NCBI GenBank assembly: GCA_944393375.1 | Contig: CALXZX010000002.1 | Coordinates: forward strand, 15,487 to 79,486 | Direction of reading: 5' to 3' | DNA: 64,000 nt | DNA from: an uncultured Clostridia bacterium | GTDB taxonomy: Bacteria > Bacillota > Clostridia > TANB77 > CAG-508 | In this document: positions 11,663 through 62,640 of the stretch, one piece after another | Numbering within the stretch: position 1 is the first letter of the stretch | Layout: every line of letters starts with the position of its first letter | Position numbers and translations under genes: made by a program | The notes under the pieces: generated by a model | Told to the model about the DNA's origin: nothing | Databases searched by the model: none | Seen by the model: only the letters and a program-made list of their open reading frames with translations

Positions 11663-11765
11663 TTGTCATGCTCCCATCTCTATAAAATTTATATTTGCAT
11701 TATAGCACAACAAAGAAAAAAGATAAAGTTTTCTGAATTTAAAACAATAAAAATGAAAAAATCCC

Positions 11766-11960
11766 TAGAGTTTCTTACTCTAAGAATAATTTATATAAAG
11801 ATAATATCAATAAAGTAGTTATATGTCAATAAAAATATTCTTTATTTGTACAACAAATTTTTATATAAAAATGAAAGTTTTTATAATTATAATCTAAAAC
11901 TATAAATCTATAAATGACAATAGTTAGAAAGATATTATCAATTTCTTAGAGTAAGAAACT
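11766..11960. promoter_or_regulatory. Putative invertible promoter (inverton 1) upstream of surface-protein paralog 1
   Basis: IR-L 11769-11786 (agtttcttactctaagaa) is the exact reverse complement of IR-R 11943-11960 (ttcttagagtaagaaact), 18 bp. The enclosed 156 bp carries TTGACA (11829-11824), 17 nt, TATTAT (11806-11801) on the minus strand, facing away from the gene at 12019. Confidence 0.7.
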
Positions 11961-12018
11961 AAAAGAAAATTAAAAATAGTTTCAAAACAAAAGAAAATGC
12001 AGAAAAGAGGGATAAAAA

Positions 12019-13494
12019 ATGAAAAAACACATACAAAAAAGTAAAATGAAAAATCAAAAAGGAATTACATTATTAGTATTAGTTATTACTATAATAATTT
12101 TATTAATCCTAGCAGGAATTACCATAAGTGCGTTAACAGGAGACAATGGAATTATAGAAAATGCAGGAAAGGCAAAAGAAGAAACAGAAATAGCCAATGA
12201 AAAAGAGATAGTAGAAAAGGCAACCGTACAAGCAATGGGGAATAATAAGTATGGAAATATAGAAGAAGATGAATTGCAAAGTGAGTTAGATAAAGAAACA
12301 GGAGAAGGGAAAACAGATGCAACAGATATAGGAAATGAACTTGAAGTAGTATTTATTGATAGTAATCGATATTATGTAGTTGATAAAGATGGAAATGTAG
12401 GAGAAGCACAAGAGATTATAAAAGATAAAAATCCAGGAGATATTACAATAGGAAAAGATGGAGAAACATTAGATGGAAGTGAAGAACATCCATATGAGAT
12501 AAGGTGTATAGAAGATTTAATAGAATGGTCACAACATTATACTAAATATCAGAATAGTAATATTGTCTTATGTAAAGACTTGAATTTTAAATCTTCACTA
12601 TCTTATGCAGATAGTAAAAGTATGGAATATGGAGACATCAATCAAGATAATACAACAGACAGTCTGATTGAGGAGATGCAAAAAGGAATAGGTTTCACAC
12701 CAATAGCAAATTTTTCAGGGATATTTAATGGGAATCATTTTGGAATTCAGAATATTTATATAGTTAATCATGAAAGTGTAGGACTATTTAGTCAAATAGA
12801 TGGAGCTATAATAAGTGATCTAGATATAAGTGGATATATTGAAAGTACAGAAATTACTAGCATTGCTGGTGGAGCTGGTAGCATAGCAGGAAATATAAGT
12901 GAAGGAAGAAATAAAAAAAGTTATATAGAAAATTGTTCAAATAGTGCTACTATAAAAGGTTTTTTAAACCAAAATTATACAGGAATTGGTGGTATAGTAG
13001 GTAAATCTAACGGGGCAGCTAATATAGTAAATTGTAGTAATAGAGGTACAATAATAAGTGAAGTAGGTACAAAAGTTTATATGGGAGAAAACGCAATAGG
13101 TACTGCGGGAATTTTAGGATATACAAGAGGTAATAAGGCTGATGTCAATATATATAACAGTTATAATATAGGAAATGTTTCATCAAATAAATCATCTTGT
13201 GGAATAATGGGAGGTATATGGGCAGAAGGTTCAATTAATATAGAAAATTGTTTTAATATAGGAGAAGCAAAAATAGGGATTTGTAAAAGTGCAAATAGTA
13301 GTAACAGTATTTACTATTTGGATAGTGCAAGTAGCACAGGAGGAATAACAAATGCAGTTCTTATTACAAAAAATGAATTGTGTAGTGAAGAATTTATTAA
13401 TTTATTAAATGATTATATAGAATCAGGAGAAGATTATAAAACTAAATGGAAAAAATGGAAATTAGGAGAAGAAGGATATCCTATAATTGAATAA
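12019..13494 (+). CDS. Surface protein paralog 1: pilin-like N-terminal hydrophobic module plus GLUG-type beta-helix repeats
   Basis: N-terminus KGITLLVLVITIIILLILAGITISALTGDNGII resembles a class III (prepilin) signal but lacks Glu+5. A conserved ~160-aa module ends at PYEIRCIEDL. The C-terminal half has repeated GG(I/L)(V/I)G...N(C/S)xN.G motifs. Confidence 0.85.
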   Translation: MKKHIQKSKMKNQKGITLLVLVITIIILLILAGITISALTGDNGIIENAGKAKEETEIANEKEIVEKATVQAMGNNKYGNIEEDELQSELDKETGEGKTDATDIGNELEVVFIDSNRYYVVDKDGNVGEAQEIIKDKNPGDITIGKDGETLDGSEEHPYEIRCIEDLIEWSQHYTKYQNSNIVLCKDLNFKSSLSYADSKSMEYGDINQDNTTDSLIEEMQKGIGFTPIANFSGIFNGNHFGIQNIYIVNHESVGLFSQIDGAIISDLDISGYIESTEITSIAGGAGSIAGNISEGRNKKSYIENCSNSATIKGFLNQNYTGIGGIVGKSNGAANIVNCSNRGTIISEVGTKVYMGENAIGTAGILGYTRGNKADVNIYNSYNIGNVSSNKSSCGIMGGIWAEGSINIENCFNIGEAKIGICKSANSSNSIYYLDSASSTGGITNAVLITKNELCSEEFINLLNDYIESGEDYKTKWKKWKLGEEGYPIIE

Positions 13495-13613
13495 GTGGGA
13501 GGAGTTTGAATTTATAACTTGAAAAATAAAATAAAAAAATATATAATACAAAAGACAAATATGTGCTGTTTTCTAATCATTATTAAGAAAAATAGATTAA
13601 TGGAGAAGAATAT

Positions 13614-14414
13614 ATGATATATCTAAATAATGAAAAAAAGATAAATAAATTAAGAGAAAAAATGAATAAAAGTAATATCTATATATTTATGGATTATGAT
13701 AAAACAATTACCTCAAATAAAAGTGAAGATTCATGGGATACTATTGCTAATAGAAAAGTAATGGGAGAAGAACTTGCAAATGGTTTAAATGGATATTATC
13801 AAAAATATGGTCCTATAGAATTAGATTATACTATAAATATAGAAGAAAAAGAAAAATACATAATTGAATGGTATCAAAAATGTATGGAATTATATTATAC
13901 ATATCATCTTACGAAAGAAAAATTAAAACAATGTATTGATAATAGTAATTTAGAATTAAGAAATGGTGTAAAAGATTTTCTTTTTAAGTTATATAAAAAT
14001 AATATACCAGTTATTATATTGTCAGCAGGAATTGGAAATGTGATAGAACAATTTTTGAAAAAGGAAGAATGTTTTTATGATAACATGACAATAATTAGCA
14101 ATTTTATAAAATTTCATGAAAATGGCAAAATGATAAAATTTTCTGATAATATGACTCATACATTAAATAAAAATATAGATAAATTGGGTGACTTGAAAAT
14201 CAAAGAAGAAATGGAAACAAAGGAATATAGAATTGTAATAGGCGATTTAGTTGAAGATATTAACATGATGGGAAATTATCCAGATAATAAAGCTTTAAAA
14301 ATAGGATTTCTAAATACAAATGTTGCTGAGAATCTAGGAATATATATAAAAAATTTTGATATTGTTCTATCTGAAGACAGTAATTTTTATGATATAGAAA
14401 AATATGTAATTTAA
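13614..14414 (+). CDS. HAD-superfamily pyrimidine 5'-nucleotidase, UMPH-1/NT5C3-like
   Basis: DxDxT motif (MDYDKTIT). IPVIILSAGIGNVIEQF, ISNFIKFHENG, GDLVEDINM and KIGFLN...NFDIVLSEDSNF are colinear with my recollection of human NT5C3 (IPVFIFSAGIGDVLEEV, VSNFMDFDETG, GDSQGDLRM, KIGYLN...SYDIVLVQDESL). Confidence 0.8.
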   Translation: MIYLNNEKKINKLREKMNKSNIYIFMDYDKTITSNKSEDSWDTIANRKVMGEELANGLNGYYQKYGPIELDYTINIEEKEKYIIEWYQKCMELYYTYHLTKEKLKQCIDNSNLELRNGVKDFLFKLYKNNIPVIILSAGIGNVIEQFLKKEECFYDNMTIISNFIKFHENGKMIKFSDNMTHTLNKNIDKLGDLKIKEEMETKEYRIVIGDLVEDINMMGNYPDNKALKIGFLNTNVAENLGIYIKNFDIVLSEDSNFYDIEKYVI

Positions 14415-14429
14415 AAAAAGAAGCAAGGA

Positions 14430-14831
14430 CTATCTATCTATGCCCTTGCTATTTTCTGTACAACTATCATCTTGATAATAAAATCTATCAAGTTCATTTT
14501 TTATCAAATTCCATTGGGCTATACAACTTTTATAATCTAATGGAAGAATAAGTGAAGAAAAAGGATTTTCAAGATATATTCTTTCAAATTTTTCTTTACG
14601 AAGTATTTTCTCGAATCTAGGCAACAAAGGACATATAAAAGTTCCTTCTTCACAGACAAAGAAAAGAGGAGAGCTTTTTATAAAAACCCTTTTTTTAGAA
14701 TGTGCTGGCTTTATAATTTTATTAGGAAATCCAGGAACATAATGAGTCTGCATGCCATCTTCTGGTATTTTGAATGCAAAATTTTTTAAATCTTCTAATG
14801 TATATATATTATAATTTATGTTGTAATGCAT
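14430..14831 (-). CDS. Hypothetical protein
   Basis: The start is placed at the ATG at 14831 (MHYNINYN...), which follows AGAGGTG. The longer track ORF (to 14891) lacks an RBS. No recognisable domain. Confidence 0.5.
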   Translation of the reverse strand: MHYNINYNIYTLEDLKNFAFKIPEDGMQTHYVPGFPNKIIKPAHSKKRVFIKSSPLFFVCEEGTFICPLLPRFEKILRKEKFERIYLENPFSSLILPLDYKSCIAQWNLIKNELDRFYYQDDSCTENSKGIDR

Positions 14832-14994
14832 AATAACACCTCTTACAAATATTAACATAAATAGTATACCACATCTATGCGTTTTTTGCAAAGTTTAATA
14901 TAGAAATAAAAAATATATAAATTTTTATAAAAATAAAGTGGATTTTTTAGATATAAATGATATAATACAAAAGATTACGAAAGGAACTGATAAG

Positions 14995-15507
14995 ATGAAC
15001 ATAGAAGAAATACAAAAAAATAATGATAATAAAGAAATTATATTGCAAGCAGTAAAGGAAAATGGAAAAAATTTAGAATTAGCATCAATACAATTACAAG
15101 ATGATAAAGAAGTGGTTATGGAAGCACTAAAACAAGATGGAGAAGCTTTGGAGTTTGCTAGTAAAAGGTTAAAAGGGGATAAAGAAGTCTTAGAACTAGC
15201 AACTAAAACAGCACCTTGGACAATTTGTTACGCATCAGAGGAACTAGCAGGAGACAAAGAAATTATGCTAGAATGTTGTAAACATTATGGACAAGCTCTA
15301 TATTATGCATCTGAAGAATTACGAGATGATAGAGAAGTGGTAAAGGCAGCAGTAGAAAATAAAGGGATTATTATTAAATATGCTAGTAAACGATTAATTG
15401 ATGATAAAGAATTAGCACAAATTGCTGTTAAACAAAATAAACAAGCTTATCATTTTATATCAAATAAATTGAAACAAGATGAAGATATTAAAAAGTTAAT
15501 GGAATAG
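14995..15507 (+). CDS. DUF4116 repeat protein
   Basis: About five tandem ~30-aa repeats of the AVKxNGxALEyASxxLkdDKEvvl type. ATG at 14995 after AAAGGA is preferred over the GTG at 14938. Confidence 0.65.
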   Translation: MNIEEIQKNNDNKEIILQAVKENGKNLELASIQLQDDKEVVMEALKQDGEALEFASKRLKGDKEVLELATKTAPWTICYASEELAGDKEIMLECCKHYGQALYYASEELRDDREVVKAAVENKGIIIKYASKRLIDDKELAQIAVKQNKQAYHFISNKLKQDEDIKKLME

Positions 15508-15624
15508 AAAGTAGTGGTATCAAAAAATGATGCCATTCTTTTCTATATGGGGTTGAAATTTATAATAATATATCTTACAATATATCATAATTAAAAAATA
15601 AAAAACTAGTGAAGGAAGAAAGGA

Positions 15625-16176
15625 ATGAGTTTTATGAGAGTATTGGTTGTATCAGATATTCATGGGTCAGGTGTATATGCTGACAAATTAAAAGAAATTA
15701 TCAAAAAAGAAAAACCAGAAAAAATAATTGTATTGGGAGATTTATATTATCATGGACCTAGAAATCCATTAACAGATGGATATGACCCAATGAAAGTGGC
15801 AAAAGTATTAAATAGTGTAAAAGATAAATTAGAAGTTGTAAGAGGAAACTGTGATGCAGAAGTAGACCAAATGGTTTCTGAATTTGAAATAAAAGAAAAT
15901 ATATTAGAAAGAATTAATGGAAAGAATATGTTTTTTACACATGGACATAAATACAATATAGATAATTTACCACCAGAAGATTTTGATATCATGTTTTATG
16001 GACATTTTCACACATGTTTTATTAAAAAATATGATAATCAATTGTTTGTAAATCCGGGCTCTATTACATTACCAAAAGATAATACACCACATAGTTATGT
16101 TATGATAGAAGAAAAGGATATTATTATAAAAGATGTTGATGAAAATGTGATAGAAGAATATAGATACAAAGAATAG
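15625..16176 (+). CDS. yfcE: YfcE-type metallophosphoesterase (phosphodiesterase)
   Basis: VVSDIHGS, LGDLYYHGPRNPL, VRGNCDAEVDQM, THGH, YGHFH and NPGS are colinear with E. coli YfcE motifs. Confidence 0.85.
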   Translation: MSFMRVLVVSDIHGSGVYADKLKEIIKKEKPEKIIVLGDLYYHGPRNPLTDGYDPMKVAKVLNSVKDKLEVVRGNCDAEVDQMVSEFEIKENILERINGKNMFFTHGHKYNIDNLPPEDFDIMFYGHFHTCFIKKYDNQLFVNPGSITLPKDNTPHSYVMIEEKDIIIKDVDENVIEEYRYKE

Positions 16177-16182
16177 TATCAA

Positions 16183-16250
16183 ATTAGGGACGTTTCTGTT
16201 TGGACATTTTTTAAATTATTTAAAAATGTCCAAACAGAAACGTCCCTAAT
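16183..16250. terminator. Perfect 29-bp-arm palindrome between convergent yfcE-like and mgtA genes (bidirectional terminator, REP-like element)
   Basis: attagggacgtttctgtttggacattttt (16183-16211) is the exact reverse complement of 16222-16250. Confidence 0.8.
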
Positions 16251-16261
16251 TTTCCTTTTGG

Positions 16262-18883: not shown

Positions 18884-19039
18884 CTTCCTTTCTTTTGTTA
18901 AAATTTCTTTATCATTATACCACAACAAAATAGAAATAAAACAAGTTGATGAAAAAATATGAAAAAATTTTATAATATATTGTAAAAATATAGAAATTTT
19001 GTATATAATGGATTTGAAAATATAGAAGGAGGTATTTTT

Positions 19040-19840: not shown

Positions 19841-19872
19841 AGAAGGATAATATAAAATAAAAAGGTTATGAT

Positions 19873-39817: not shown

Positions 39818-41767
39818 ATGGGACAAAAGAAAAGTAAAAGTTTGTTAATAACAGTTATTGTTTTATTAATTATTATTTTAATTTTAGTAGGCGTTATAGC
39901 ATATTTATATTTTTTCACAGATATGTTTAAAAGTAATAAACAGTTATTTTTCAAATATACTTCACAGATTATGCAAAGTGAAGATGGATTTATAGATAAT
40001 CAGTTAATGCAATATTTTCAAAAAAAGGATAGCACAAGTTATGAAAATAATGGAGAAATAACATTTGATGTATCTATTCCCAATATGGAAGATGATTTAG
40101 AATTGGCTAATCATTTTAATATTACTTTTTCAGGAAAAGAAGATCCTAATAATTCAAAATTAGAAAAAGAGATTAGTCTCAACTATTCAGATAGTGTCAA
40201 TTTTCCATTAACATATAGAAAAACAAATAACATAACAGGAATTCAAACCCAATATATTGGAAGTAGTTTTGTAGCTATTAGAAATGATGAAGAAATTTCT
40301 GGATTAACAGATATAAATAATTTATTAAAATTACAAAATATAGCGTTTTCTAATGAAGAAATACAAAATCTGAAAACAACTTATTTTGATAATATATTAA
40401 ATACATTAGAAGATAGCAAGTTTTCTACATTAACTGAGGGGAATTTAACAGGATATAGATTAACATTAACAGGTGAAGAATTCAAAAATACATTGGTTCA
40501 AATCTTAAATGTATTAAAAACAGATGCTAATACAATGCATAAAATAAACGAGATCTTGCAAGGGATAGGAATCGATACACAATTAAATGAAGATTCTATA
40601 GATACGCTAATAGAAAGTATTAATGATTGGGAATTAAATGATAATATTGAAATGACTGTATATGCCACAGGAGGAAAACTATATAGAGTTGATATAGGAA
40701 CAGCTGGAAATACATTAACAATAAATAGAGAAGGAAACGGTCAAGAAGTAACATATACTATGTCTTTGAATGTGACAGAACAAAATGCAAGTGCAGTATT
40801 TACAGCTAAATATTCTGGATTAAATTCAGATAATGTAACTGAAACATATGAACTAACATTAGAAGGAAAGTATGGAGAAACTAATGTAGTAGAAAAATCA
40901 GATAATACACAAGATACATTAGATATTTCAAGTGAGAGAGAAACAATTGAGTCATTAATGACAACTGTTCAAGCAAATAAAATAGCAGCAGGAGAAGATA
41001 GTACCCAAATCAGTGATACAGATGTAGAAGAAGAATTATCATCAGGAGAAAATGAAATCTATACAGATATGCGTTTAGAAAGAGAAACAGATACAACATT
41101 TAGTATTACATTTGTTAGTACAGGAGACAAATTTGTCATAGATAACACAGGAAAAATTGTTGAAGAACCAGAAGAAACTTCAACAAATGAAACTACAACA
41201 AATGCATCAGAAAATACGACCAGCCATAATACATATAATATGACAAATAATGTACAATTTAAAAATGGAGTACAAATAGAAGATTTAACAGAAGAAAATG
41301 CAGTTATTTTAAATGATAAAGATAATGAATATGTTAGCAATTTGATGAATGCTATACAACAAAGAATGGTAGAAGTCAATCAAGTGCAAATGGAAGAATT
41401 AGGCGTATCAGAAGATCAAAATCCAATTCAATATCTAATACCAGCATTTTTATTAACAAACGGAACAAATGCAGAAATAGATGAACAGGCAGTAAATGCT
41501 TTTAATGCAAAATTTGAACTATATGAAAGTACAAATACAAAAGGAGCAACAGTGAAAGGGTTATTAACAACTATACAAAATAATAATGAGACAGAAGGAA
41601 ATAACAAAATAGAAGAAATCAATATGGATGGCGAAGAATATGAAGTAAATGAACAAAATATTACCTTATTAAAAAGTAGCATTAATGTAGATGACGCATA
41701 CAGGGTAGAATTCGAAAAAGATATTAACACAGGACTAATTTATAGGGCAGTTATTAATAAACGTTAG
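39818..41767 (+). CDS. Hypothetical membrane-anchored protein
   Basis: ATG at 39818 after GGAGG. One N-terminal TM (LLITVIVLLIIILILVGVIAYLYFF), then ~620 aa of N/E/T-rich sequence with no recognised domain. Confidence 0.6.
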   Translation: MGQKKSKSLLITVIVLLIIILILVGVIAYLYFFTDMFKSNKQLFFKYTSQIMQSEDGFIDNQLMQYFQKKDSTSYENNGEITFDVSIPNMEDDLELANHFNITFSGKEDPNNSKLEKEISLNYSDSVNFPLTYRKTNNITGIQTQYIGSSFVAIRNDEEISGLTDINNLLKLQNIAFSNEEIQNLKTTYFDNILNTLEDSKFSTLTEGNLTGYRLTLTGEEFKNTLVQILNVLKTDANTMHKINEILQGIGIDTQLNEDSIDTLIESINDWELNDNIEMTVYATGGKLYRVDIGTAGNTLTINREGNGQEVTYTMSLNVTEQNASAVFTAKYSGLNSDNVTETYELTLEGKYGETNVVEKSDNTQDTLDISSERETIESLMTTVQANKIAAGEDSTQISDTDVEEELSSGENEIYTDMRLERETDTTFSITFVSTGDKFVIDNTGKIVEEPEETSTNETTTNASENTTSHNTYNMTNNVQFKNGVQIEDLTEENAVILNDKDNEYVSNLMNAIQQRMVEVNQVQMEELGVSEDQNPIQYLIPAFLLTNGTNAEIDEQAVNAFNAKFELYESTNTKGATVKGLLTTIQNNNETEGNNKIEEINMDGEEYEVNEQNITLLKSSINVDDAYRVEFEKDINTGLIYRAVINKR

Positions 41768-41845
41768 GGACGTGCCAAATCGTTCAATTTTTGAACGATT
41801 TGACCTGTCCCCAATGTTCAAAAATTGAACGAAAGGGACAGACCT
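41764..41845. repeat. Composite REP-like palindromic element (GGGAC-type) at the 3' end of the 39818 gene
   Basis: gggacgtgcc-aaatcgttcaatttttgaacgattt-gacctgtcccc forms nested inverted repeats. It is followed by a second copy, gttcaaaaattgaac, and by gggacagacc. Confidence 0.55.
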
Positions 41846-47312: not shown

Positions 47313-47314
47313 GA

Positions 47315-47360
47315 AAATAGCTTAAGAATATTTTATTTATTGAATATTCTTAAGCTATTT
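47315..47360. terminator. Bidirectional hairpin between convergent spoIIIAH and the XRE gene
   Basis: Perfect 18-bp arms aaatagcttaagaatatt / aatattcttaagctattt. The right arm overlaps the 3' end of the XRE gene. Confidence 0.7.
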
Positions 47361-47556
47361 TATTGGCCATTATTCTTATGTATTCGCCTAATTCTTCATC
47401 CGTTAATTCTAATTCTAAAATTAGGTTTTTCAGAACATCTCGTCTAGGTAAATCTTCTTCATTATCAATTCGTATATATTGTCTTAAGCTAATTCCTAGT
47501 ATTTCAGACATTTTTTCTTGTGTATATTTTTTTGCCTTTCTTTTTTCTTTTATCAT
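47350..47556 (-). CDS. XRE family helix-turn-helix transcriptional regulator (68 aa)
   Basis: The YTQEKMSEILGISLRQYIRIDN HTH is typical of Cro/C1-type regulators. Confidence 0.8.
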   Translation of the reverse strand: MIKEKRKAKKYTQEKMSEILGISLRQYIRIDNEEDLPRRDVLKNLILELELTDEELGEYIRIMANKIA

Positions 47557-47630: not shown

Positions 47631-47679
47631 GCATAAAAATATATAAAATATTTTTTAATCATTTAAAGATAAAAAAGCC

Positions 47680-47874
47680 TTAGAGTTTTTTACTCTAAGA
47701 AAGATTAATATAAGTTAATCATAACAATAAAATAGTGAAATGTCAATAAAATTTAATTGAATAAAATAGTGAATGTTTTAAGGAGAAATAATAAAAATTC
47801 AAAAAATGAAATAGAAGAAAATAAAGTAATATTAATACTTATGGAATTTTCATAATTTCTTAGAGTAAAAAAAT
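47680..47874. promoter_or_regulatory. Putative invertible promoter (inverton 2) upstream of the BspA-LRR paralog
   Basis: IR-L 47686-47702 (ttttttactctaagaaa) is the exact reverse complement of IR-R 47856-47872 (tttcttagagtaaaaaa), 17 bp. The segment carries TTGACA (47746-47741), 17 nt, TATGAT (47723-47718) on the minus strand, facing away from the gene at 47899. Confidence 0.7.
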
Positions 47875-47898
47875 AATGGAAACCAAAGGAGAGAAATT

Positions 47899-50010
47899 AT
47901 GAAAACTAAAGAAAATAGAAAAAATAGGGGAATTACTTTAATTGCCCTAGTTATCACCATTATAGTGTTACTAATTTTAGCAGGAATCACAATAGGAGCG
48001 ATAACAGGAGATAATGGTATTATACAAAATGCATTAAGTGCAAAAGAACAAACAGAAATTGCAAATGAAAGAGAAATTGTAGAAGAAGCAACTGTTCAAG
48101 CCATGGGAAAGAATAAAAGAGGAAACATTGTAAAAGATGAATTGCAAGAAGAATTAGATAAAATAACAGGAGAAGGAAAAACCATTGTAACAGAAGATAA
48201 AGAAGAACTAGGATATTTTGTAAAGTTTGTAGACAGTGGAAGAATCTATAAAGTTAGTATAGATGGAGATGTACAATATTTAGGAAAAGAAAATGAATTA
48301 ATCACACAAGCAGATATTATAGCAAATCCAGAAAGTAATACAACAGCAGAGCTAATACAACAAGTAGATTTAACAGTAAAAACACCAATTGAAATAGAAG
48401 GAGCAGAGTATTCATTAGTATATGCATGGAACCAAGATAAAGAAAATGCACCAGAAGATACAAAATTCTTAGAAACAAACTTAATAGGAGAAGGAAGAAT
48501 CAGAACGACAACGGTATATAGTAGTGATACAGTAGGAGGAGACTATTACTTGTGGGTAAGAATTGTGGTAGGAGATATAGAAAGAGAAGCATGTTTTGGA
48601 CCATATGCAATAAAAGATTATACAACTTTAGTATCTGTTGATTGGAATGGTGGTTTAGCAGAAGGAGGATTTTTAGGAAATAGTGAAGTACCAAGAGGAA
48701 AAATACAAAATATTGATATAATTACATCATTAGAGGGACATAGTGTAGATGATGAAAAAACCTGGGATGTATCAGATGGAAATAAAGGAATGTATTTAGC
48801 ATGGTATGAAGTAAATGAGAATGGATATTATGATGTAACGATTGCAGGAAATGGAGGAATTGTTGCAAATAGTTATTCAACATATTTATTTAAAAATATA
48901 GGTTCTGGTGTGGAAAATCAAGAAGTAACAATAACAGGGTTAGAATATTTAGACACAGGGTTAGTAACGAATATGTATTCAATGTTTGAAAATTGTAAAG
49001 CAGAAGAAATAGATGTGAGCCAATTTAATACAGAAAAAGTTACATCCATGTCATCAATGTTTTCAAGTTGTAGTAATATAGAAAGTTTGAATGTAAGTAA
49101 TTTTAAAACAGAGAATGTAACAAGTATGTATCAGATGTTTGATGGATGTAGTAGTTTAACAGAATTAGATTTAACGAATTTTAATACAAGTAATGTAACG
49201 AATATGGAAGGTATGTTTTTGAACTGTAAAGCAACAAGTATATACTTAAGTGGTTTTGATACAAAAAATGTAGCAAATATGCTAAATATGTTTAATGGTT
49301 GTTCTGTAACAAGCCTGGATGTAAGCCATTTTAACACAAGTAATGTAACAAATATGCAGGGAATGTTTGCTAATTGTAAAGTACAGAGTTTAGATTTAAC
49401 GAGTTTTAATACAAGTAAAGTAACAACTATGTGGACTATGTTTCAAGGGTGTCAAGCAACTAATATTGATGTGAGTAGTTTTGACACGAGTAGTGTATTA
49501 TATATGAGAGAAATGTTTGCATCGTGTAGAGCAACAGATTTAGATTTATCTAATTTTGATACAAGCAATGTAACAAATATGTATAGAATGTTTATGAGTT
49601 GTAGAGCAACAAATATAGATGTAAGCAATTTTGACATAAGTAACGTAACATATACTATGGATGGAATGTTCCGAGATTGTTCAAATTTAGTAAAATTAGA
49701 TGCAAGTAGTTTTACAATGCCCAAAACAACATCTGTAGAGTGGATGTTTGGAGGTTGTCAAAAAATAGAACAAATAGACCTTAAAAATTTTGAGGTAAAG
49801 GAAGGAACCAATATTAATCAGATGTTTTACAACTGCCGAAGTTTAGAAAAATTAGATATTAGAAAATTTGATATAACAAAGACAACTGGATATAGTAATT
49901 ACTGGATATATCCTGTACCAACAACATGTAGTATTATTGTAAATCAAAGCATGAAAGATTGGTTTACAGAAAACCTTCCAAATTATACAAATGTAACAAT
50001 AGGAAATTAG
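47899..50010 (+). CDS. Surface protein paralog 2: pilin-like N-terminal module plus BspA/DUF285-type leucine-rich repeats
   Basis: N-terminus RGITLIALVITIIVLLILAGITIGAITGDNGII is homologous to the other five paralogs. The C-terminal half has about 12 tandem ~24-aa repeats (F(N/D)TSNVTNMxxMFxxCxxxxLDLSN). Confidence 0.88.
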   Translation: MKTKENRKNRGITLIALVITIIVLLILAGITIGAITGDNGIIQNALSAKEQTEIANEREIVEEATVQAMGKNKRGNIVKDELQEELDKITGEGKTIVTEDKEELGYFVKFVDSGRIYKVSIDGDVQYLGKENELITQADIIANPESNTTAELIQQVDLTVKTPIEIEGAEYSLVYAWNQDKENAPEDTKFLETNLIGEGRIRTTTVYSSDTVGGDYYLWVRIVVGDIEREACFGPYAIKDYTTLVSVDWNGGLAEGGFLGNSEVPRGKIQNIDIITSLEGHSVDDEKTWDVSDGNKGMYLAWYEVNENGYYDVTIAGNGGIVANSYSTYLFKNIGSGVENQEVTITGLEYLDTGLVTNMYSMFENCKAEEIDVSQFNTEKVTSMSSMFSSCSNIESLNVSNFKTENVTSMYQMFDGCSSLTELDLTNFNTSNVTNMEGMFLNCKATSIYLSGFDTKNVANMLNMFNGCSVTSLDVSHFNTSNVTNMQGMFANCKVQSLDLTSFNTSKVTTMWTMFQGCQATNIDVSSFDTSSVLYMREMFASCRATDLDLSNFDTSNVTNMYRMFMSCRATNIDVSNFDISNVTYTMDGMFRDCSNLVKLDASSFTMPKTTSVEWMFGGCQKIEQIDLKNFEVKEGTNINQMFYNCRSLEKLDIRKFDITKTTGYSNYWIYPVPTTCSIIVNQSMKDWFTENLPNYTNVTIGN

Positions 50011-50718: not shown

Positions 50719-50730
50719 ATATAAGGTATA

Positions 50731-53149: not shown

Positions 53150-53165
53150 AAAAGGAGGAAGAAAT

Positions 53166-55439: not shown

Positions 55440-55460
55440 TAAAAAACAACTAAAAAAAGT

Positions 55461-55654
55461 CCTAGAGTTAAGTACTCTAGAACTTTTTTAATACCTTGAT
55501 TATACCAATAAATATAATAGATATCAACAAAAAATAGAAAATAAAATGACAAAATTTATTAATTGGAAAATAGAAAATAAAAAAGAACAAAGACAGTAAA
55601 AAGGCTAAATAATGCATAAAATCCAACTTTCTATATTTCTTAGAGTACTTAACT
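55461..55654. promoter_or_regulatory. Putative invertible promoter (inverton 3)
   Basis: IR-L core 55466-55479 (agttaagtactcta) is the exact reverse complement of IR-R 55641-55654 (tagagtacttaact), 14 bp. The flanking GAA/TTC extends it with a 1-nt bulge. The segment carries TTGATA (55527-55522), 17 nt, TATAAT (55504-55499) on the minus strand. Confidence 0.65.
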
Positions 55655-55683
55655 AAAAGAAAGTATAGAAGGGAGAAGATAAA

Positions 55684-57219
55684 ATGCAAAAGATAAGGAA
55701 AGAACAGGGAATTACATTATTAGCATTAGTAATTACTATTATTATATTATTAATCTTAGCAGGAATCACAATAAGTGCTATTACAGGGGACAATGGAATC
55801 ATAGGAAATGCAGGACAAGCAAAAGAGGAAACAGAGATTGCCAATGAAAAAGAAATTATAGAAAAAGCGACTGTACAAGCAATGGGAAATAATAAATATG
55901 GGAACATAGAAGAAAGTGAATTACAAGAACAATTAGATAAAGAAACAGGAGAAGAAAAAACAGAAGTATTAAATGTCGAAGATGAATTTGAAGTTGTATT
56001 TCATGAAAGTAACAGATATTATACAGTAGATAAAGATGGAAATGTACAAGGTGCCTATGAAATCATAGAAGATAAATATCCGGGAGATATTACTGTTGGA
56101 AAAGATGGAGAAACATTATATGGAAGTGAAGAAAAACCATATGAAATCTGGTGTATAGAAGATTTAATGGAATGGTCTAAAAACTATAGTCAATATATGA
56201 ACGCATATATAAAGTTATGTACTAATTTAAACTTTAAATCAGAATTATCATATGCAAATAGTGAAACAAAAGACTATGGAGATGTGAATCAAGATGGAAA
56301 TACAGATAGTTTAATAAAAGAATTACAAAGTAGAGAAGGATTTAAAGCAATACAACAATTTTCAGGTAATTTTGATGGTGATGAAAATATAATCAGTAAT
56401 TTATATATTTCTAAACAGGACAATGCAGGTCTCATCTTATCTTTAAATAATGCTAATTTCAAGAATATTACAATAAAAGGAGAAATATATAGCCAAAGTA
56501 ATAATGCCGGAATTATTTCTCAAGGAGGAAATAGTCAAATTGAAAATATTATAAGTGATGTTAAGATATATGGTGGCGTAGCAGCAGGAATAATAGGAAG
56601 ATGTACAGCTCAATTAAACATAAAGGATTGCGTGAACTTGGGAAATATAGAATCAACGTCAGCAGTAGGTGGAGTTTGTGGAGACCAGTTTACAGGAGAA
56701 ATGTTAAATTGTATAAATGAAGGAACAATAAAATCTAGCGCAAGTGGAAATTATGGTGTAGGAGGATTATGTGGAAATACTGGCAGTAATAATACAGAAA
56801 GTACACAAATAAAAAATTGTATAAATAGTGGAACAATTATATATGATGGAAATAAAAGTGTATGGTATTTTGGTGGAGCAGGTGGAATAACAGGATTAAA
56901 TCGACAAACATTGATTATACAAAACTGTGTGAATACAGGAAAAATACAATCTACCTCTTATGTAGGTGCTATATGTGGAATGGATCTTATATATTGGCAA
57001 AGCCAAGAAACATATGAATTAACCAATTCATTCATGTTAGATAATGTGGAGAGAGTAACAGGAAGTAATAATGCAGAAACAGAAATTACAGTATTTAAAA
57101 TCGAAGATGTTCTAGATGTAGCTACAAGTTTAAATCAATATATAAATAATAATAAATTAACAGAACAAGGTTGGAAATTATGGAAAATAGAAAATGATAA
57201 TAAATTAACATTAGAATAA
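55684..57219 (+). CDS. Surface protein paralog 3: pilin-like N-terminal module plus GLUG-type beta-helix repeats
   Basis: GGGAGAAG RBS. MQKIRKEQGITLLALVITIIILLILAGITISAITGDNGIIGNAG start. Constant module runs to PYEIWCIEDL (55684-56166). C-terminal GG(V/L)CG/AGGITG repeats. Confidence 0.88.
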   Translation: MQKIRKEQGITLLALVITIIILLILAGITISAITGDNGIIGNAGQAKEETEIANEKEIIEKATVQAMGNNKYGNIEESELQEQLDKETGEEKTEVLNVEDEFEVVFHESNRYYTVDKDGNVQGAYEIIEDKYPGDITVGKDGETLYGSEEKPYEIWCIEDLMEWSKNYSQYMNAYIKLCTNLNFKSELSYANSETKDYGDVNQDGNTDSLIKELQSREGFKAIQQFSGNFDGDENIISNLYISKQDNAGLILSLNNANFKNITIKGEIYSQSNNAGIISQGGNSQIENIISDVKIYGGVAAGIIGRCTAQLNIKDCVNLGNIESTSAVGGVCGDQFTGEMLNCINEGTIKSSASGNYGVGGLCGNTGSNNTESTQIKNCINSGTIIYDGNKSVWYFGGAGGITGLNRQTLIIQNCVNTGKIQSTSYVGAICGMDLIYWQSQETYELTNSFMLDNVERVTGSNNAETEITVFKIEDVLDVATSLNQYINNNKLTEQGWKLWKIENDNKLTLE

Positions 57220-57242
57220 AATATATAAAAAATAAAAATAAA

Positions 57243-57445
57243 TTCATTGAGTTAGATACTCAATGAATTTTTTACTAAAAAGATTATACCATAATTGTAA
57301 AGAAAATCAAGCATTTAAAAAGATATTTAATATAATAATTAGTAATTAAAAAAGTAATAAAATAAAATGAAAAGGTAGTTAAAAATGCACATATTTTCAT
57401 AAAAAAAGTCCTTTTTAATTTTCATTAAGTATCTAACTTAATGAA
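57243..57445. promoter_or_regulatory. Putative invertible promoter (inverton 4)
   Basis: The reverse complement of IR-L 57243-57267 (ttcattgagttagatactcaatgaa) matches IR-R 57421-57445 (ttcattaagtatctaacttaatgaa) at 23/25 positions. The loop sequences ttagata and tatctaa are mutual reverse complements. The segment carries TTGATT (57310-57305), 16 nt, TATAAT (57288-57283) on the minus strand. Confidence 0.7.
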
Positions 57446-57464
57446 AAAGAAAGGGGCAAGAAAA

Positions 57465-59066
57465 ATGCAAAAGATAAGGAAAGAACAGGGAATTACACTA
57501 TTAGCATTAGTTATAACCATCATTGTGTTATTAATCTTAGCAGGAATCACAATAAGTGCGATAACAGGAGATAATGGAATCATAGGAAATGCAGGTCAAG
57601 CAAAAGAAGAAACAGAGATTGCCAATGAAAAAGAAATTGTAGAGAAAGCAACTGTACAAGCAATGGGAAATAATAAATATGGGAACATAGAAGAAAGTGA
57701 ATTACAAGAACAGCTAAATAAGGAAACAGAGGAAGGAAAAACAGAAGTATCAGATGTCGAAGATGAATTTGAAGTTGTATTTCATGAAAGTAATAGATAT
57801 TATACAGTAGATAAAGATGGAAATGTACAAGGTGCCTATGAAATCATAGAAGACAAATATCCAGGAGATATCACAGTTGGAAAAGATGGAAATACATTAG
57901 ATGGAAGTGAAGAAAAACCGTATGAGATTTGGTGTATAGAAGATTTATGTGCATTTTCAAACGAAGTAAATAAAGGAACAACATTTTGGAGCAAATATGT
58001 AAAATTAATGAGAAATTTAAATTTTAATTCAAATCTTTCTTATGTAAACGGAAACATATCTGTAGATGGGAATATTCAAAGTTGTCAATCAATCGAGGAA
58101 TTAAAGAAGTTATTAACAGAAAATGAAGGATTTTATCCTATTGGAAATTCATATTCATCAACAGCTGCAATTTTTAGGGGAATTTTTGATGGAAATAATA
58201 AGACTATAAAAAAAATATATATTAATAGACCCAATAATGTGGTAGGATTATTCGGAACAACATCCAATGATACCGATAATAATATTATTATTAAAAATTT
58301 ATCTATTTCTGGAAATATGACCGGAAGTACTGTTGGTAGTATATTTGCTGATGTTAGAACTTATGATAGGGATAATAAAGATTCTTTTATAAAAATTGAA
58401 AATTGCACAAGTGACATAAATATAGAAGGAGATGTGACAGGGGGATTTATTGGAATTAATAATGCTTCTTCTACAGGAAAATTGATTATTGCCAATTGTA
58501 TAAATAATGGAACAATAAATGGCAAAAGTTATGTTGGTGGCATTTTAGGATATAATTATAATAATACTAAAATAATTAACTGTTATAATTCAGGAAACAT
58601 AGAAGGAGAGTCGGATGTAGGAGGAATTGTTGGACATGATGAAAGGCAATCTAATATAATAAATACATATAATTTAGGAAATGTGACATCTAATTCGAAT
58701 GCTGGAGGAATAATAGGCTGGTCAGGATGGGCAGAAAAAAGTATAGAAAATTGTTATAATATGGGAAGAATATCAGGAAGTACTGTAGGTGGAATTATTG
58801 GAGGATTAAATATAAGTAATGAATTGCTAACTACTCAAAATTGTTATTATTTAAATAAAAATATTTCAAAAGGAACTGGAAGTTGGAATGGTGGAGGAGA
58901 ATCTCAAGAAGATATTAATGGTATTTCTGATACTGAAATGAAATCAACTGAAATATTAGAAAAACTCAATAATTATGTAACAGAAAATATAACAATAGAA
59001 GGTGTTGTGTTGAAAAAATGGATAGTAGGAGAGGATGGATATCCAATTTTTGAAAAAAATATATAA
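57465..59066 (+). CDS. Surface protein paralog 4: pilin-like N-terminal module plus GLUG-type beta-helix repeats
   Basis: The ATG at 57465 (after AAAGGGG) aligns with the MQKIRKEQGITLLAL start of paralogs 3 and 6. The track start at 57441 lies inside IR-R. The C-terminal ~110 aa are shared with paralog 5. Confidence 0.88.
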   Translation: MQKIRKEQGITLLALVITIIVLLILAGITISAITGDNGIIGNAGQAKEETEIANEKEIVEKATVQAMGNNKYGNIEESELQEQLNKETEEGKTEVSDVEDEFEVVFHESNRYYTVDKDGNVQGAYEIIEDKYPGDITVGKDGNTLDGSEEKPYEIWCIEDLCAFSNEVNKGTTFWSKYVKLMRNLNFNSNLSYVNGNISVDGNIQSCQSIEELKKLLTENEGFYPIGNSYSSTAAIFRGIFDGNNKTIKKIYINRPNNVVGLFGTTSNDTDNNIIIKNLSISGNMTGSTVGSIFADVRTYDRDNKDSFIKIENCTSDINIEGDVTGGFIGINNASSTGKLIIANCINNGTINGKSYVGGILGYNYNNTKIINCYNSGNIEGESDVGGIVGHDERQSNIINTYNLGNVTSNSNAGGIIGWSGWAEKSIENCYNMGRISGSTVGGIIGGLNISNELLTTQNCYYLNKNISKGTGSWNGGGESQEDINGISDTEMKSTEILEKLNNYVTENITIEGVVLKKWIVGEDGYPIFEKNI

Positions 59067-59074
59067 AAAAATAT

Positions 59075-59276
59075 CGTTAAGTTAATTACTTAACGATTGA
59101 AAACTAAATATATAATACCAATAAAAAATAGTAAAGTCAATAGATAAGGAGAGATATACAAGAAAAGAAAAATAGAATAGAAAACAACAAAAAATGAAAA
59201 GCAGAAATGATTTGTTTTATAGTAAAATCAAATCATTCCTGCTTTTTTATATATACCTTAAGTAATTAACTAAAAG
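59075..59276. promoter_or_regulatory. Putative invertible promoter (inverton 5)
   Basis: The reverse complement of IR-L 59075-59095 (cgttaagttaattacttaacg) matches IR-R 59256-59276 (ccttaagtaattaactaaaag) at 18/21, with a perfect 14-bp core. The segment carries TTGACT (59140-59135), 17 nt, TATTAT (59117-59112) on the minus strand. An internal plus-strand terminator lies at 59201-59248. Confidence 0.7.
59201..59248 (+). terminator. Intrinsic terminator inside inverton 5, just upstream of IR-R
   Basis: gcagaaatgattt / aaatcattcctgc, a 13-bp stem with one mismatch, followed by TTTTTT. Confidence 0.65.
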
Positions 59277-59331
59277 AAAATGAAAAAATGATGAAATACA
59301 TGAGAAAATAAAAAGAAAAGAGGTATAACGT

Positions 59332-60987
59332 ATGAGATTCAAAAGAGAAAACAAACGAGAAGCAGGAATTACATTATTAGCATTAGTTATAACCATCATT
59401 GTATTATTAATATTAGCAGGAATTATAATAAGTGCTATTACAGGGGACAATGGAATCATAGGAAATGCAGGTCAAGCAAAAGAAGAAACAGAGATTGCAA
59501 ATGAAAAAGAAATTGTAGAGAAAGCAACTGTACAAGCAATGGGAAATAATAAATATGGGAACATAGAAGAAAGTGAATTACAAGAACAATTAGATAAAGA
59601 AACGGATACTGGAAAAACAGAAGTATCAGATGTGGAAGATGAATTTGAAGTTGTATTTCATGAAAGTAACAGATATTACACAGTAGATAAAGATGGAAAT
59701 GTAGATGGTGCCTATGAAATTATAGAAGATAAACATCCAGGAGATATTACGCTTGGAAAAGATGGAGAAACATTAGATGGAAGTGAAGAAAAACCATATG
59801 AGATTTGGTGTATAGAAGACTTAGTAGCTTTTTCGAATATGGTAAATGGAGAAGGGATTAGGTTAGAAAATGGCGAGCCCAAACAAATAAGAAGTACAAA
59901 TAGTTTTTCTTTAAAATATGTTGTTTTAAAAACAAATCTTAATTTTAAATCAAAATTATCATATCAAAATAGTGAAAGAACGGACTTTGGAGATATTAAT
60001 GGAAATGAAAATGATGGAAATACATTGATGAATGAAATGACAACAGAAAATGGATTTAAACCAATAGGAATGGTTGAAAATACAGGCTTCGGTGGTGTTT
60101 TTGATGGTCAAAATTATTGGATAAAAGAAATGTATATCCATAGAGAAGATAGAGGAGTAGGTCTATTTACTAAAATAGACAATGTAAATAGTGTAGTTAT
60201 AAAAAATTTGAGAATATCAGGAGAAATGGCAGGAAACTCTGGCGGAGGTGTAGTAGGGACGGTATCTTTGGTTTTTAGAGGGAACAATATAATGATACAA
60301 AATTGTATAAATTATGTAAATATTAAAACTACGGTTTCGGCAGGAGGAATTGTTGGCAGTCGTGGATCTGGTGGATCAGATAAGACTTTAATGATTGCTG
60401 ATTGTATAAACTATGGAGAAATTGAAGGACAAAATTTCTCGGGTGGAATTATTGGACTAGCATATGAAACTACAAAAATTATTAATTGCTGTAATATAGG
60501 AAAAATAGTAAGTAAAGATAAAAATGAAGCATATGGAGGAGCGGGTGGAATTATTGGAACTAGTATGTTTAAAGTTAATATTATTAATGCATATAATTTT
60601 GGAAATGTAGAAGCTGAAAAAAATGCAGGAGGTATTTTAGGATATTCTTATTGGGCAGAAAAGAGTATAGAAAATTGTTATAATATAGGGAAAATATCAG
60701 GAGATACTGTAGGTGGAATTATAGGAACATTGACACTAAGTAATGAATTGTTAGCAACACAAAACTGTTACTATTTAAACACAAATATTTCAAAAGGATT
60801 TGGTAGTTGGAATTCTAGTGCAGAAGCATTAGAAGATGTACAAGGTCTTACAGATACAGAAATGAAATCAACGGAAGTATTAGAGAAACTCAATAATTAT
60901 GTAACAGAGAATATAACAATGGAAGGTATTGTATTGAAAAAATGGATAGTAGGAGAGGATGGATATCCTGGATTTGATAATAACTAA
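59332..60987 (+). CDS. Surface protein paralog 5: pilin-like N-terminal module plus GLUG-type beta-helix repeats
   Basis: AGAGG RBS. MRFKRENKREAGITLLALVITIIVLLILAGIIISAITGDNGII start. Constant module to PYEIWCIEDL (ends 59823). GG(I/V)(I/V)G...NC(Y/I)N.G repeats. Confidence 0.88.
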   Translation: MRFKRENKREAGITLLALVITIIVLLILAGIIISAITGDNGIIGNAGQAKEETEIANEKEIVEKATVQAMGNNKYGNIEESELQEQLDKETDTGKTEVSDVEDEFEVVFHESNRYYTVDKDGNVDGAYEIIEDKHPGDITLGKDGETLDGSEEKPYEIWCIEDLVAFSNMVNGEGIRLENGEPKQIRSTNSFSLKYVVLKTNLNFKSKLSYQNSERTDFGDINGNENDGNTLMNEMTTENGFKPIGMVENTGFGGVFDGQNYWIKEMYIHREDRGVGLFTKIDNVNSVVIKNLRISGEMAGNSGGGVVGTVSLVFRGNNIMIQNCINYVNIKTTVSAGGIVGSRGSGGSDKTLMIADCINYGEIEGQNFSGGIIGLAYETTKIINCCNIGKIVSKDKNEAYGGAGGIIGTSMFKVNIINAYNFGNVEAEKNAGGILGYSYWAEKSIENCYNIGKISGDTVGGIIGTLTLSNELLATQNCYYLNTNISKGFGSWNSSAEALEDVQGLTDTEMKSTEVLEKLNNYVTENITMEGIVLKKWIVGEDGYPGFDNN

Positions 60988-61054
60988 TCATAAAGTTAAA
61001 ATTTAAATTACTCAATAGAAAATATATTTGTTAAATTAATGAATTAAATATTGC

Positions 61055-61106
61055 AAAATCTCTAATTGTGTTGTAAAATAATGGAAATGCAATTAGAGAT
61101 TTTTTT
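61055..61106 (+). terminator. Rho-independent terminator after paralog 5
   Basis: 14-bp stem aaaatctctaattg / caattagagatttt followed by a T-run. Confidence 0.7.
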
Positions 61107-61440
61107 GTTTTATTCATAAAGTTTTATTGTTAATTAAAAAAGAGTTTTGTTTAATGAGATTTATATCAAAAAATTAAAAAAATAAATAATCTAACGATTC
61201 AAGTATTTTTAAAATGTTAAAAAGTATTAATAAAATTATTTTTCAAAAATTATTTTGTGATTTAAATAGAGTTTAATTCTGAAGTTTTAAATTTGTATTT
61301 GTTGATTTTTTATATCTGAATTTATATCTGAAACATTCCAGTTTTTATATATTTATTTTTCATGTAAAAAATAAATGGTAATTGTTGTGAGTACAAAATA
61401 TCTCTAATGTATTTATAGATAAAGAAAAGTCAACTTTTTG

Positions 61441-61469
61441 TTGAATATGCAATAAAAATTTGATAGAAT
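61441..61469 (+). promoter_or_regulatory. Sigma-A-type promoter of the Rpn-like gene
   Basis: TTGAAT (61441-61446), 17 nt, TAGAAT (61464-61469). AAAGGAG RBS before the ATG at 61485. Confidence 0.55.
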
Positions 61470-61484
61470 GAAAGGAGAAGATAA

Positions 61485-62369
61485 ATGAGTAATTTAAACA
61501 AATTAAAAGAAGTAGATATGCTACCATTATCAAATGATTATGTATTCAAAAGAATATTTGGAAAAGGTGGAAATGAAAGAATATTAAAAAGCTTACTAGA
61601 AGCAATTTTAAAAATTAGTATACAAAAAATAGAAGTAAAAAATCCGGAAATACCAAAAGAAGCAATTGATGAAAAATTAAGCATCTTAGATATCAAAGCA
61701 GAAATAAATGAAAATACCATTATAGATGTTGAATTACAAGTAGGAAATACAACGGCCTTAGAAAGAAGATTAGTAGTATATAATGCAAAACTAATAGCAG
61801 GAGAAATAAAAGTATCAGAAAAATATCAAAAGGCAAAAGATACAATTGTGATATGTATTATAAATGATAATGTTGTAAGACGAAATGCATATTTAAGTTT
61901 AGCCATGTTAAAATATGAAAAAACAGAAGAAATCAGATATGTCAATATGGGATATGGAAAAGAAGAAGAATATTTAACAGACATGGTAAAATACTATATC
62001 ATAGAATTACCAAAGTTTAAGAAAAAGAAACCAAAGGTAGCAGATTTACTAGAAAAATGGTTATATGTGATTGGGGGAGATAGAAAAATGATGGAAGAAT
62101 GCAAAAAAGAAAATGAAGAAATCAAAGAAGCAGTAGAACAATTAACACAAATGAGTGCAGATGAATACGAAAGAGAACTATATGAAATTAGGGAAAGAAG
62201 TAGATTAACTTATAACACAGAAATGTATGAAGCAAGAAGGAAAGGATTAGAAGAAGGGAAGACTGAAGAAAGAAAAGAAATTGCTAAGAAAATGAAAGAA
62301 AAAGGTACAGATATTACATATATAATCGAGATAACAGGTTTAACTGAAGAAGAAATTAAAGCATTGTAA
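61485..62369 (+). CDS. Rpn / PD-(D/E)XK (PDDEXK_2, TIGR01784 'putative transposase or invertase') family nuclease
   Basis: N-terminal L..SNDYVFKRIFG motif. D...E.Q nuclease core (LSILDIKAEINENTIIDVELQ). Charged helical C-terminus ending in an HTH-like KGTDITYIIEITGLTEEEIKAL, as is typical of this family. Confidence 0.75.
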   Translation: MSNLNKLKEVDMLPLSNDYVFKRIFGKGGNERILKSLLEAILKISIQKIEVKNPEIPKEAIDEKLSILDIKAEINENTIIDVELQVGNTTALERRLVVYNAKLIAGEIKVSEKYQKAKDTIVICIINDNVVRRNAYLSLAMLKYEKTEEIRYVNMGYGKEEEYLTDMVKYYIIELPKFKKKKPKVADLLEKWLYVIGGDRKMMEECKKENEEIKEAVEQLTQMSADEYERELYEIRERSRLTYNTEMYEARRKGLEEGKTEERKEIAKKMKEKGTDITYIIEITGLTEEEIKAL

Positions 62370-62418
62370 TTTATTTATAAGTATCATTAAAGAAATAATT
62401 TTTCAGAACATAAAAAAT

Positions 62419-62618
62419 CGTTAAGTCAGATACTTAACGATATAAAACTAAAAATATAATATCAATAAAAAATAGTAAAGTCAATAGATAGAAAGAATGA
62501 AAATAAAGAATTAAAATTCATAAAGAAAATAAAAAACAAAAAGTAGAAAAAACTTGTAATAGTGTTACAATAAGTAATTTCTGCTTTTTTCTTTTTACCT
62601 TAAGTATCTGACTTAATG
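62419..62618. promoter_or_regulatory. Putative invertible promoter (inverton 6)
   Basis: The reverse complement of IR-L 62419-62439 (cgttaagtcagatacttaacg) matches IR-R 62598-62618 (ccttaagtatctgacttaatg) at 19/21, with a perfect 17-bp core. The segment carries TTGACT (62484-62479), 17 nt, TATTAT (62461-62456) on the minus strand. An internal terminator-like hairpin plus T-run lies at 62542-62590. Confidence 0.7.
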
Positions 62619-62640
62619 AAAAAGGAAAGGAGTAGGAAAA

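Follow-up and report, generated by a model that had tools for sequence, protein, structure and literature searches.

Invertible promoters of a pilin-like gene family in uncultured Clostridia carry a predicted terminator specific to the OFF orientation

The subject of this analysis is a window of 64,000 nucleotides of chromosomal DNA from an uncultured Clostridia bacterium (contig CALXZX010000002.1 of GenBank assembly GCA_944393375.1, positions 15,487 to 79,486; coordinates below are counted from the first letter of the window). We found six pairs of inverted repeats of 14-25 nucleotides in it, each upstream of one gene of a pilin-like family, and the segments that they enclose qualify as invertons. 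In the OFF orientation the promoter of a segment faces the left repeat (IR-L), away from the gene, and in the ON orientation it faces the gene through the right repeat (IR-R). We consider it probable that each paralogue stands under its own invertible promoter cassette of about 180 bp, in which a split terminator would be put together in the OFF orientation only and would guard the neighbouring genes.

Inversion itself was observed in contigs of the same strain, which we obtained by querying public assemblies for the exact proteins. In one of them (L082), both 300-nucleotide flanks of locus 3 are 100% identical to the window, and the sequence between them matches the reverse complement of the window segment at 100% identity. 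Another (L089) begins within the segment of locus 5, and its first 75 nucleotides match only the window inverted in silico, that is, locus 5 in the ON state. These results show that the switches invert in nature and that both orientations exist at loci 3 and 5. Every other same-strain copy was OFF, so that OFF accounts for 14 of 16 same-strain observations. The same preponderance was found when switches of 79 related genome loci were taken together with those of the window and L001: of 68 in all, 62 were assembled OFF, and all six ON switches precede plus-strand family genes. A comparison of L024 (ON) with L018 (OFF) revealed 98% identity after inversion. The original prediction had described all six window loci as assembled OFF, and OFF as the default state of a consensus; both descriptions hold, with promoters that face the minus strand at all six loci and the inverted forms of loci 3 and 5 in public contigs. 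With a base rate of 62/68, six OFF loci in one assembly are unremarkable by themselves. L085, which comes from the sample that also yielded L089, breaks off exactly in the spacer of the locus 4 IR-L (window position 57260), and several public contigs start 80-380 nucleotides upstream of family genes. Contig breaks tend to fall at or within switches, the outcome to be expected if both orientations are mixed within samples.

The six switches share one geometry. Spacer centres of IR-L and IR-R lie at 11774 and 11955 (locus 1), 47689 and 47869 (locus 2), 55471 and 55649 (locus 3), 57255 and 57433 (locus 4), 59085 and 59266 (locus 5), and 62429 and 62608 (locus 6), with a centre-to-centre distance of 178-181 nucleotides throughout. 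As judged from sequence only, the best sigma-70-type match of each segment is a TG-extended minus-strand element, TTGAyw-16/17-TATwAT, which agrees with the consensus at 10-11 of 12 positions and adjoins one repeat. The individual elements are TTGACA-17-TATTAT at locus 1 (11801..11829, pointing to IR-L), TTGACA-17-TATGAT at locus 2 (47718..47746), TTGATA-17-TATAAT at locus 3 (55499..55527), TTGATT-16-TATAAT at locus 4 (57283..57310), and TTGACT-17-TATTAT at both locus 5 (59112..59140) and locus 6 (62456..62484). The −10 element had been said to lie 14-19 bp from IR-L, in line with the 15-17 nucleotides that we count between its end and the base of the IR-L stem. It had also been said to belong to the only strong promoter of the segment. 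This is right insofar as the minus strand holds the best match of every segment, and it does not extend to locus 1, where a plus-strand match also reaches 10/12. The latter (TTTATA-16-TATAAT, 11860-11887) is not conserved in the diverged orthologues L007 and L011.

Transcripts from these promoters in the OFF state are predicted to be 44-46 nucleotides long, with hairpins of −9.6 to −18.6 kcal/mol (z −2.9 to −5.9) followed by U5-U7. A stable stem-loop directly before a U-tract on the transcribed strand, which is the arrangement of an intrinsic terminator, is thus present by sequence at all six IR-L. At locus 1 (11756..11787, minus strand), the A6 run (11756-11761) adjoins a stem of 11 pairs (11787-11761; −12.5 kcal/mol, z −3.7) and is read as U6. 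Locus 2 (47671..47700, minus strand) has an A6 run and a stem of 9 pairs (47700-47678; −9.6 kcal/mol, z −2.9). The hairpin of locus 3 (55452..55489) has 16 pairs between an A7 run and T6 (−18.6 kcal/mol, z −5.2) and was flagged as a terminator on either strand by an independent scanner. At locus 4 (57234..57273), AAAAATAAA is followed by a stem of 13 pairs (57270-57240; −14.4 kcal/mol, z −5.9) and by a plus-strand T6; the scanner flagged only the minus-strand terminator, and the T6 was read off the sequence. An A7 run precedes the hairpin of locus 5 (59065..59097, minus strand; stem 59097-59073, −10.8 kcal/mol, z −5.1), and an A6 run that of locus 6 (62412..62441, minus strand; stem 62441-62417, −10.3 kcal/mol, z −4.1). 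The runs start at 11756, 47671, 55452, 57234, 59065 and 62412 and measure 6, 6, 7, 5, 7 and 6 nucleotides.

The A5-A7 strings quoted in the original prediction were accordingly all located ahead of the six IR-L hairpins, and its reading of a hairpin plus U-tract on the minus strand agrees with the scanner, which flagged 6/6 sites as minus-strand terminators. Between 55 and 64 kb, the scan returned five terminator-like sites, four of them at IR-L, vs 1.0 ± 1.2 in shuffled sequences; the two other switch regions gave one each vs 0.1 expected. The chance that a given intergenic 9-mer of the window contains an A5 run is p = 0.09, which amounts to about 6e-7 for all six loci if these are taken as independent, but paralogues are not fully so. 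On the gene side, IR-R occupies 11943..11966 (locus 1, TTCTTAGAGTAAGAAACT, with a degenerate outer arm CTAAAAGAAAA), 47856..47875 (locus 2), 55641..55660 (locus 3), 57421..57445 (locus 4), 59258..59277 (locus 5) and 62597..62619 (locus 6), all read on the plus strand. The claim that AAAAG follows the right repeat is correct for five of these and not for locus 2, which reads AGTAAAAAAATAATGG. ON leaders constructed in silico kept a hairpin only at loci 4 and 6, where AAAAAG follows it, and were free of hairpins at loci 1, 2, 3 and 5; the IR-R of locus 4 is a hairpin in itself, and AAAAAG stands there rather than U.

A comparison of 49 non-redundant switches, aligned on their spacer centres, revealed that these features are conserved on one side. 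Upstream of the outer-left arm, A occupies positions −18 to −14 at frequencies of 0.73-0.92 vs about 0.5 further out; in the transcribed sense, a run of this kind is missing from the outer-right flank. The tail contains 6 or more U in 9 at IR-L in 36/49 switches and at IR-R in 0/49, against an intergenic baseline of 0.23 (p ~9e-14). The conservation profile and this baseline led us to reject AT-richness or chance as the source of the A-run. Outward hairpins are stronger at IR-L, with a mean of −9.5 kcal/mol, than at IR-R (mean −4.4; p = 2e-8). A hairpin together with a U-tract was present at 32 of the 49 IR-L and at none of the 49 gene-facing IR-R; by a looser rule, the counts are 54/68 and 0/68. 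In an assembly with an identical locus 1 protein, L001:1-60 corresponds to window positions 11715-11774, with near-continuous identity from the A-run onward and different sequence upstream. As the identity begins at the A-run, the A-run travels with the cassette.

Six positions (T-11, C-10, T-8, A-5, G-4 and T-3) are invariant in all four arms of the 49 switches. They define 9-nucleotide arms, TCnTnnAGT, around a variable spacer of 5 nucleotides (7 when the invariant T/A is counted). A tyrosine-recombinase core site comprises two inverted binding arms and an asymmetric overlap region of 6-8 bp, and the switch sites may be of this kind, which would suggest a tyrosine recombinase as the enzyme. 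Palindromy as such is therefore expected of them. It is conceivable that the IR-L palindrome and its A-tract serve recombination purely, by symmetric binding plus a bend or accessory site for synapsis or directionality, with no role in transcription. The six positions kept in all four arms, as in half-sites contacted by protein, count in favour of such a role, and so do the asymmetric accessory sites of fimS. However, symmetry that serves recombination should be independent of orientation, whereas a terminator for the OFF promoter should not, and the pattern that we observed is the one predicted for the terminator. The outer-left flank folds with the promoter-proximal end of the segment at −12.7 kcal/mol, as in the OFF transcript, and with the distal end at −7.7 kcal/mol, as at IR-L after inversion (Wilcoxon p = 3e-7). 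The outer-right flank gave −5.3 kcal/mol with the proximal end, as in the ON leader (p = 1e-8 vs outer-left with proximal), and −7.2 with the distal end. Only the outer-left and promoter-proximal halves thus make a strong hairpin, which indicates a terminator assembled in the OFF orientation only; a site for recombination must work both ways, yet the extended complementarity is confined to this one combination.

Covariation points in the same direction. At the non-invariant positions ±6, 7, 9, 12 and 13, 91.8% of cells are paired at IR-L and 73 are compensatory, with a score of 0.364 that was matched by 0/500 shuffles. At the same positions of the ON junction, which serves as a control, 74.2% of cells are paired and 19 are compensatory (score 0.093). 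Compensatory changes of the kind that a terminator structure would leave are hence found at IR-L, and positions that the recombinase does not contact covary there and not at IR-R. In addition, the A-run sits 0-2 nucleotides past the stem, where the U-tract of a terminator must be. Mismatches that turn into G.U pairs only in the outward RNA number 26 vs 11 at IR-L and 16 vs 16 at IR-R, which modestly supports selection at the RNA level. Palindrome-perfecting mutation in cis was also considered as a cause of the IR-L hairpin and rejected, since IR-R is equally adjacent in the majority state and was not perfected. We therefore regard a purely recombinational role as unlikely, and the comparison supports the IR-L hairpin and U-tract as a conserved, orientation-specific feature of the family, beyond what the palindrome of a recombination site would entail.

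Several points weigh against a terminator specific to the OFF state. The palindromic shape alone is also demanded by a recombinase core site, and many of the loci compared are paralogues or orthologues, whose counts are not independent events. A clean U-tract is missing in about one quarter to one third of the related switches (e.g. L003, L048, L006 and L052), and the G.U strand bias is a modest one. The IR-L stems hold just 3-4 G-C pairs, which is usual at 28% G+C and weak by the standards of E. coli, and termination would have to take place very near to the start site. Finally, reading all open reading frames (ORFs) of at least 120-150 amino acids revealed no recombinase gene in the window. 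In two of the switches just named (L003:101 and L048:175), the outer-left arm is of the 'outer-right' type (TCCTTTAGT) and has GGGGTTTTTCAG before it, and hairpin and A-run are both missing; these switches may be rearranged or degenerate.

The mechanism that we propose is as follows. The segment would carry one half of the terminator beside its promoter, and the other half, together with the template of the U-tract, would be fixed in the chromosome on the left side. In the OFF orientation, the promoter would fire leftward, and about 8-10 nucleotides after the start the RNA would run through the proximal arm and the spacer into the fixed outer-left arm. The two arms would pair as a hairpin of 8-16 bp with U5-U7 directly after it, and transcription would stop at about 40 nucleotides. 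At locus 1 this would keep the promoter from driving murT/gatD. At loci 2-6 it would prevent antisense transcription through spoIIIAH, a small membrane-protein gene, two paralogues and the Rpn-like gene. After inversion, the proximal half would meet the outer-right arm, where the contact bases are kept, the free positions are mismatched and A-rich sequence leads toward the ribosome-binding site; the terminator would not form, and the gene would be transcribed through IR-R. Termination at IR-L, the start site, the recombinase type and the purpose of insulating neighbours are what we infer from these sequence features.

A strong promoter and a terminator would also make a defined small transcript at each OFF locus, and there are many such loci per genome: the window has six in the OFF state, and this incomplete sample yielded 14 switches or more from a single related metagenome-assembled genome (MAG). 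A reading in which the OFF state is not silent, and hairpin RNAs of about 40 nucleotides act in trans to report the number of OFF loci and thereby coordinate expression of the family, seems to us decidedly unlikely. A small RNA made only in the OFF state as the product proper, which would act in trans to coordinate, for example, the number of ON members, seems to us very unlikely. Loci differ freely in the RNA sequence outside the recombination arms, and Rfam at its gathering threshold returned no match anywhere in the window. Moreover, insulation of the neighbours suffices as an explanation.

In addition to confining the OFF promoter, each locus appears to be insulated from upstream read-through. 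The IR-L of locus 3, with its flag on both strands, probably also ends the transcript of the upstream gene, and locus 4 has the plus-strand T6. These two T6 tracts and the scanner's plus-strand flag at locus 3, together with upstream genes that stop 12-25 nucleotides ahead of IR-L, could be taken to mean that the IR-L hairpin mainly terminates the upstream plus-strand gene and that the A-run simply completes a conventional bidirectional terminator. We find this highly improbable, as U-tracts follow IR-L on the plus strand in 7/68 switches vs 54/68 on the minus strand, loci 1, 2, 5 and 6 are without a plus-strand T-run, the upstream gene of locus 1 is divergent, locus 2 has a separate palindrome, and the homology of L001 starts at the A-run despite different upstream sequence.

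At the other loci, insulation from upstream transcription appears to come from different elements, at locus 1 from the divergent neighbour. The palindrome ahead of locus 2 is a perfect inverted repeat of 19 nucleotides (47314-47361) directly after spoIIIAH; it is probably the terminator of the spoIIIAH operon and would shield locus 2. At loci 5 and 6, the end of the segment far from the promoter holds a hairpin with a stem of about 20 bp, bordered by A- and T-runs (59201-59242 with A4 and T6 flanks, 59197..59248, at locus 5; 62543-62584 with a T-run after it, 62543..62596, at locus 6). This hairpin is probably a read-through insulator in either orientation. A strict scan for perfect stems proved too strict and found almost no internal terminators; the fold-based scan used instead placed a promoter-distal terminator on the plus strand in 16/49 and on the minus strand in 15/49 of the related switches.

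In contrast to known invertible promoters, the cassettes described here seem to join two arrangements. Like fimS of E. coli and the invertons of gut bacteria, such as the capsule and fimbrial promoters of Bacteroides, they have a promoter within a short repeat-flanked segment, a design in which a site-specific recombinase flips the segment and turns a surface-structure gene on or off, with many loci that are mostly OFF in a consensus. Unlike in those systems, the promoter that faces away in the OFF state would run into an intrinsic terminator made up of the left repeat with its outer and proximal flanks, the genes belong to an unannotated pilin-like family of uncultured Clostridia, and no recombinase gene is adjacent. 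The inverton papers that could be searched describe nothing of this sort; the word 'terminator' does not occur in the DeepInverton paper (PMC11602134). The closest parallel is cwpV of C. difficile, where a stem-loop and poly-U at the left-repeat junction, present in OFF only, abort transcription after some 60-70 nucleotides (Emerson et al. 2009, PMC2784873). An orientation-dependent intrinsic terminator at the left-repeat junction is common to both (PMC2784873). However, the cwpV promoter lies outside and upstream of the invertible region and its terminator silences the gene, whereas the promoters here lie inside the segment and the terminator would protect the neighbours, which sets the six switches apart from the cwpV type. 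Orientation of an invertible 5' region also decides transcript termination at the flgB flagellar switch of C. difficile (PMC7446863); termination is Rho-dependent there, with the promoter upstream of the switch, and is predicted to be intrinsic here, with the promoter internal. Independent switching of many paralogous surface loci by inversion, and the population heterogeneity that results, recalls the capsular polysaccharide loci of Bacteroides and Vpma/Vsa of Mycoplasma. Vpma genes share a single promoter, unlike the one cassette per gene found here, and an inhibitor acting across loci, like UpxZ of the Bacteroides capsule loci, is not evident.

A search of the literature on pilin-gene invertons of Clostridia or Firmicutes, and on terminators at the repeats of invertible promoters, returned only the cwpV and flgB precedents. 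We found no paper in which a repeat also acts as the terminator of an internal OFF-facing promoter, or which deals with the switches of this family; many subscription papers lie outside that search, which makes it weak evidence of novelty. What appears new is the combination of a fimS-like internal promoter with a cwpV-like orientation-dependent terminator. Drawings of invertible promoters usually show a promoter between repeats, and what it does in the wrong direction is rarely considered. Here the two halves of the proposed terminator, one chromosomal and one that moves with the promoter, covary across a recombination junction. This would amount to a design rule for tight, insulated natural switches that could be reused in synthetic recombinase switches, and a hairpin with a U-tract at one repeat only would be a sequence signature for predicting the ON or OFF orientation of invertons. 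The family also reveals a very large, unnamed repertoire of phase-variable surface proteins in uncultured spore-forming gut Clostridia.

The 5-nucleotide spacers of the six window loci all differ: TTCTT (11772-11776), TTTTT (47687-47691), TAAGT (55469-55473), TAGAT (57253-57257), TAATT (59083-59087) and CAGAT (62427-62431). Spacers are nearly all distinct inside each related MAG as well, which is not statistically significant alone. Distinct spacers would block recombination from locus to locus by a tyrosine recombinase. As to the enzyme, the only recombination-related gene of the window encodes an Rpn-family PD-(D/E)XK 'recombination-promoting nuclease/putative transposase' (61485-62369, between loci 5 and 6), and we rejected it as a candidate since it is not a site-specific invertase. 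Homologues of it lie near family genes in seven related loci. Clustering the flanking ORFs of 80 loci yielded no recurrent recombinase besides one frameshifted gene, an Xer-like tyrosine recombinase gene that two MAGs carry immediately after a family member (L009:4455-5393 and L041:4105-4951). Both copies are broken at a T10 run (L009:5126 and L041:4776), where T9 would give a full-length enzyme with HxxR and Y motifs. This gene may be a candidate for a slippage-gated invertase. Since the tract leaves both copies out of frame, the frequency of inversion may be gated in turn, as a second stochastic layer.

The window has a G+C content of 28%, and its host is a spore-forming Firmicute whose nearest relatives among public genomes are MAGs of uncultured Clostridia/Eubacteriales from animal guts. 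It also contains murT/gatD on the minus strand (9.6-11.7 kb), spoIIIAA-AH (42-47 kb) and acetyl-CoA carboxylase genes (50.8-54 kb). The six paralogues are all on the plus strand, at 12019..13494, 47899..50010, 55684..57219, 57465..59066, 59332..60987 and 62641..64000, the last of which continues past the end of the window. Their N-terminal 130 residues or so are nearly identical and include a hydrophobic pilin-like segment (GITLLALVITIIVLLILAG), and unnamed relatives of this domain number more than 7,700 among metagenome proteins. The C-termini are divergent, with DUF285/PARCEL repeats in paralogue 2 and a GLUG motif in paralogue 4; besides these, Pfam and NCBIfam gave no classification of the six proteins. 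A type IV pilin or pseudopilin would be recognized by an N-terminal methylation motif (G, then F/I-T-L-x-E) above the Pfam/NCBIfam threshold. The N_methyl motif was matched in one of the six proteins only, at 18.2 bits with a cut-off of 21.2; the prepilin model gave E = 0.0097, far under its cut-off, and at residue +5 the proteins have A or V in place of E. For these reasons, 'pilin-like' is used as a description only. The longest ORF of paralogue 4 begins at ATG 57441, which falls within IR-R, and the start at 57465 is conserved among the paralogues and in public gene calls; 57465 is therefore likely the true start.

Three further palindromes, at 5662-5753, 16181-16252 and 41753-41825, are intergenic and near-perfect, with arms of 34-39 nucleotides and the ends GGGAC.../...GTCCC in common. 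They may represent either a family of REP-like (repetitive extragenic palindromic) repeats or a conserved type of bidirectional terminator.

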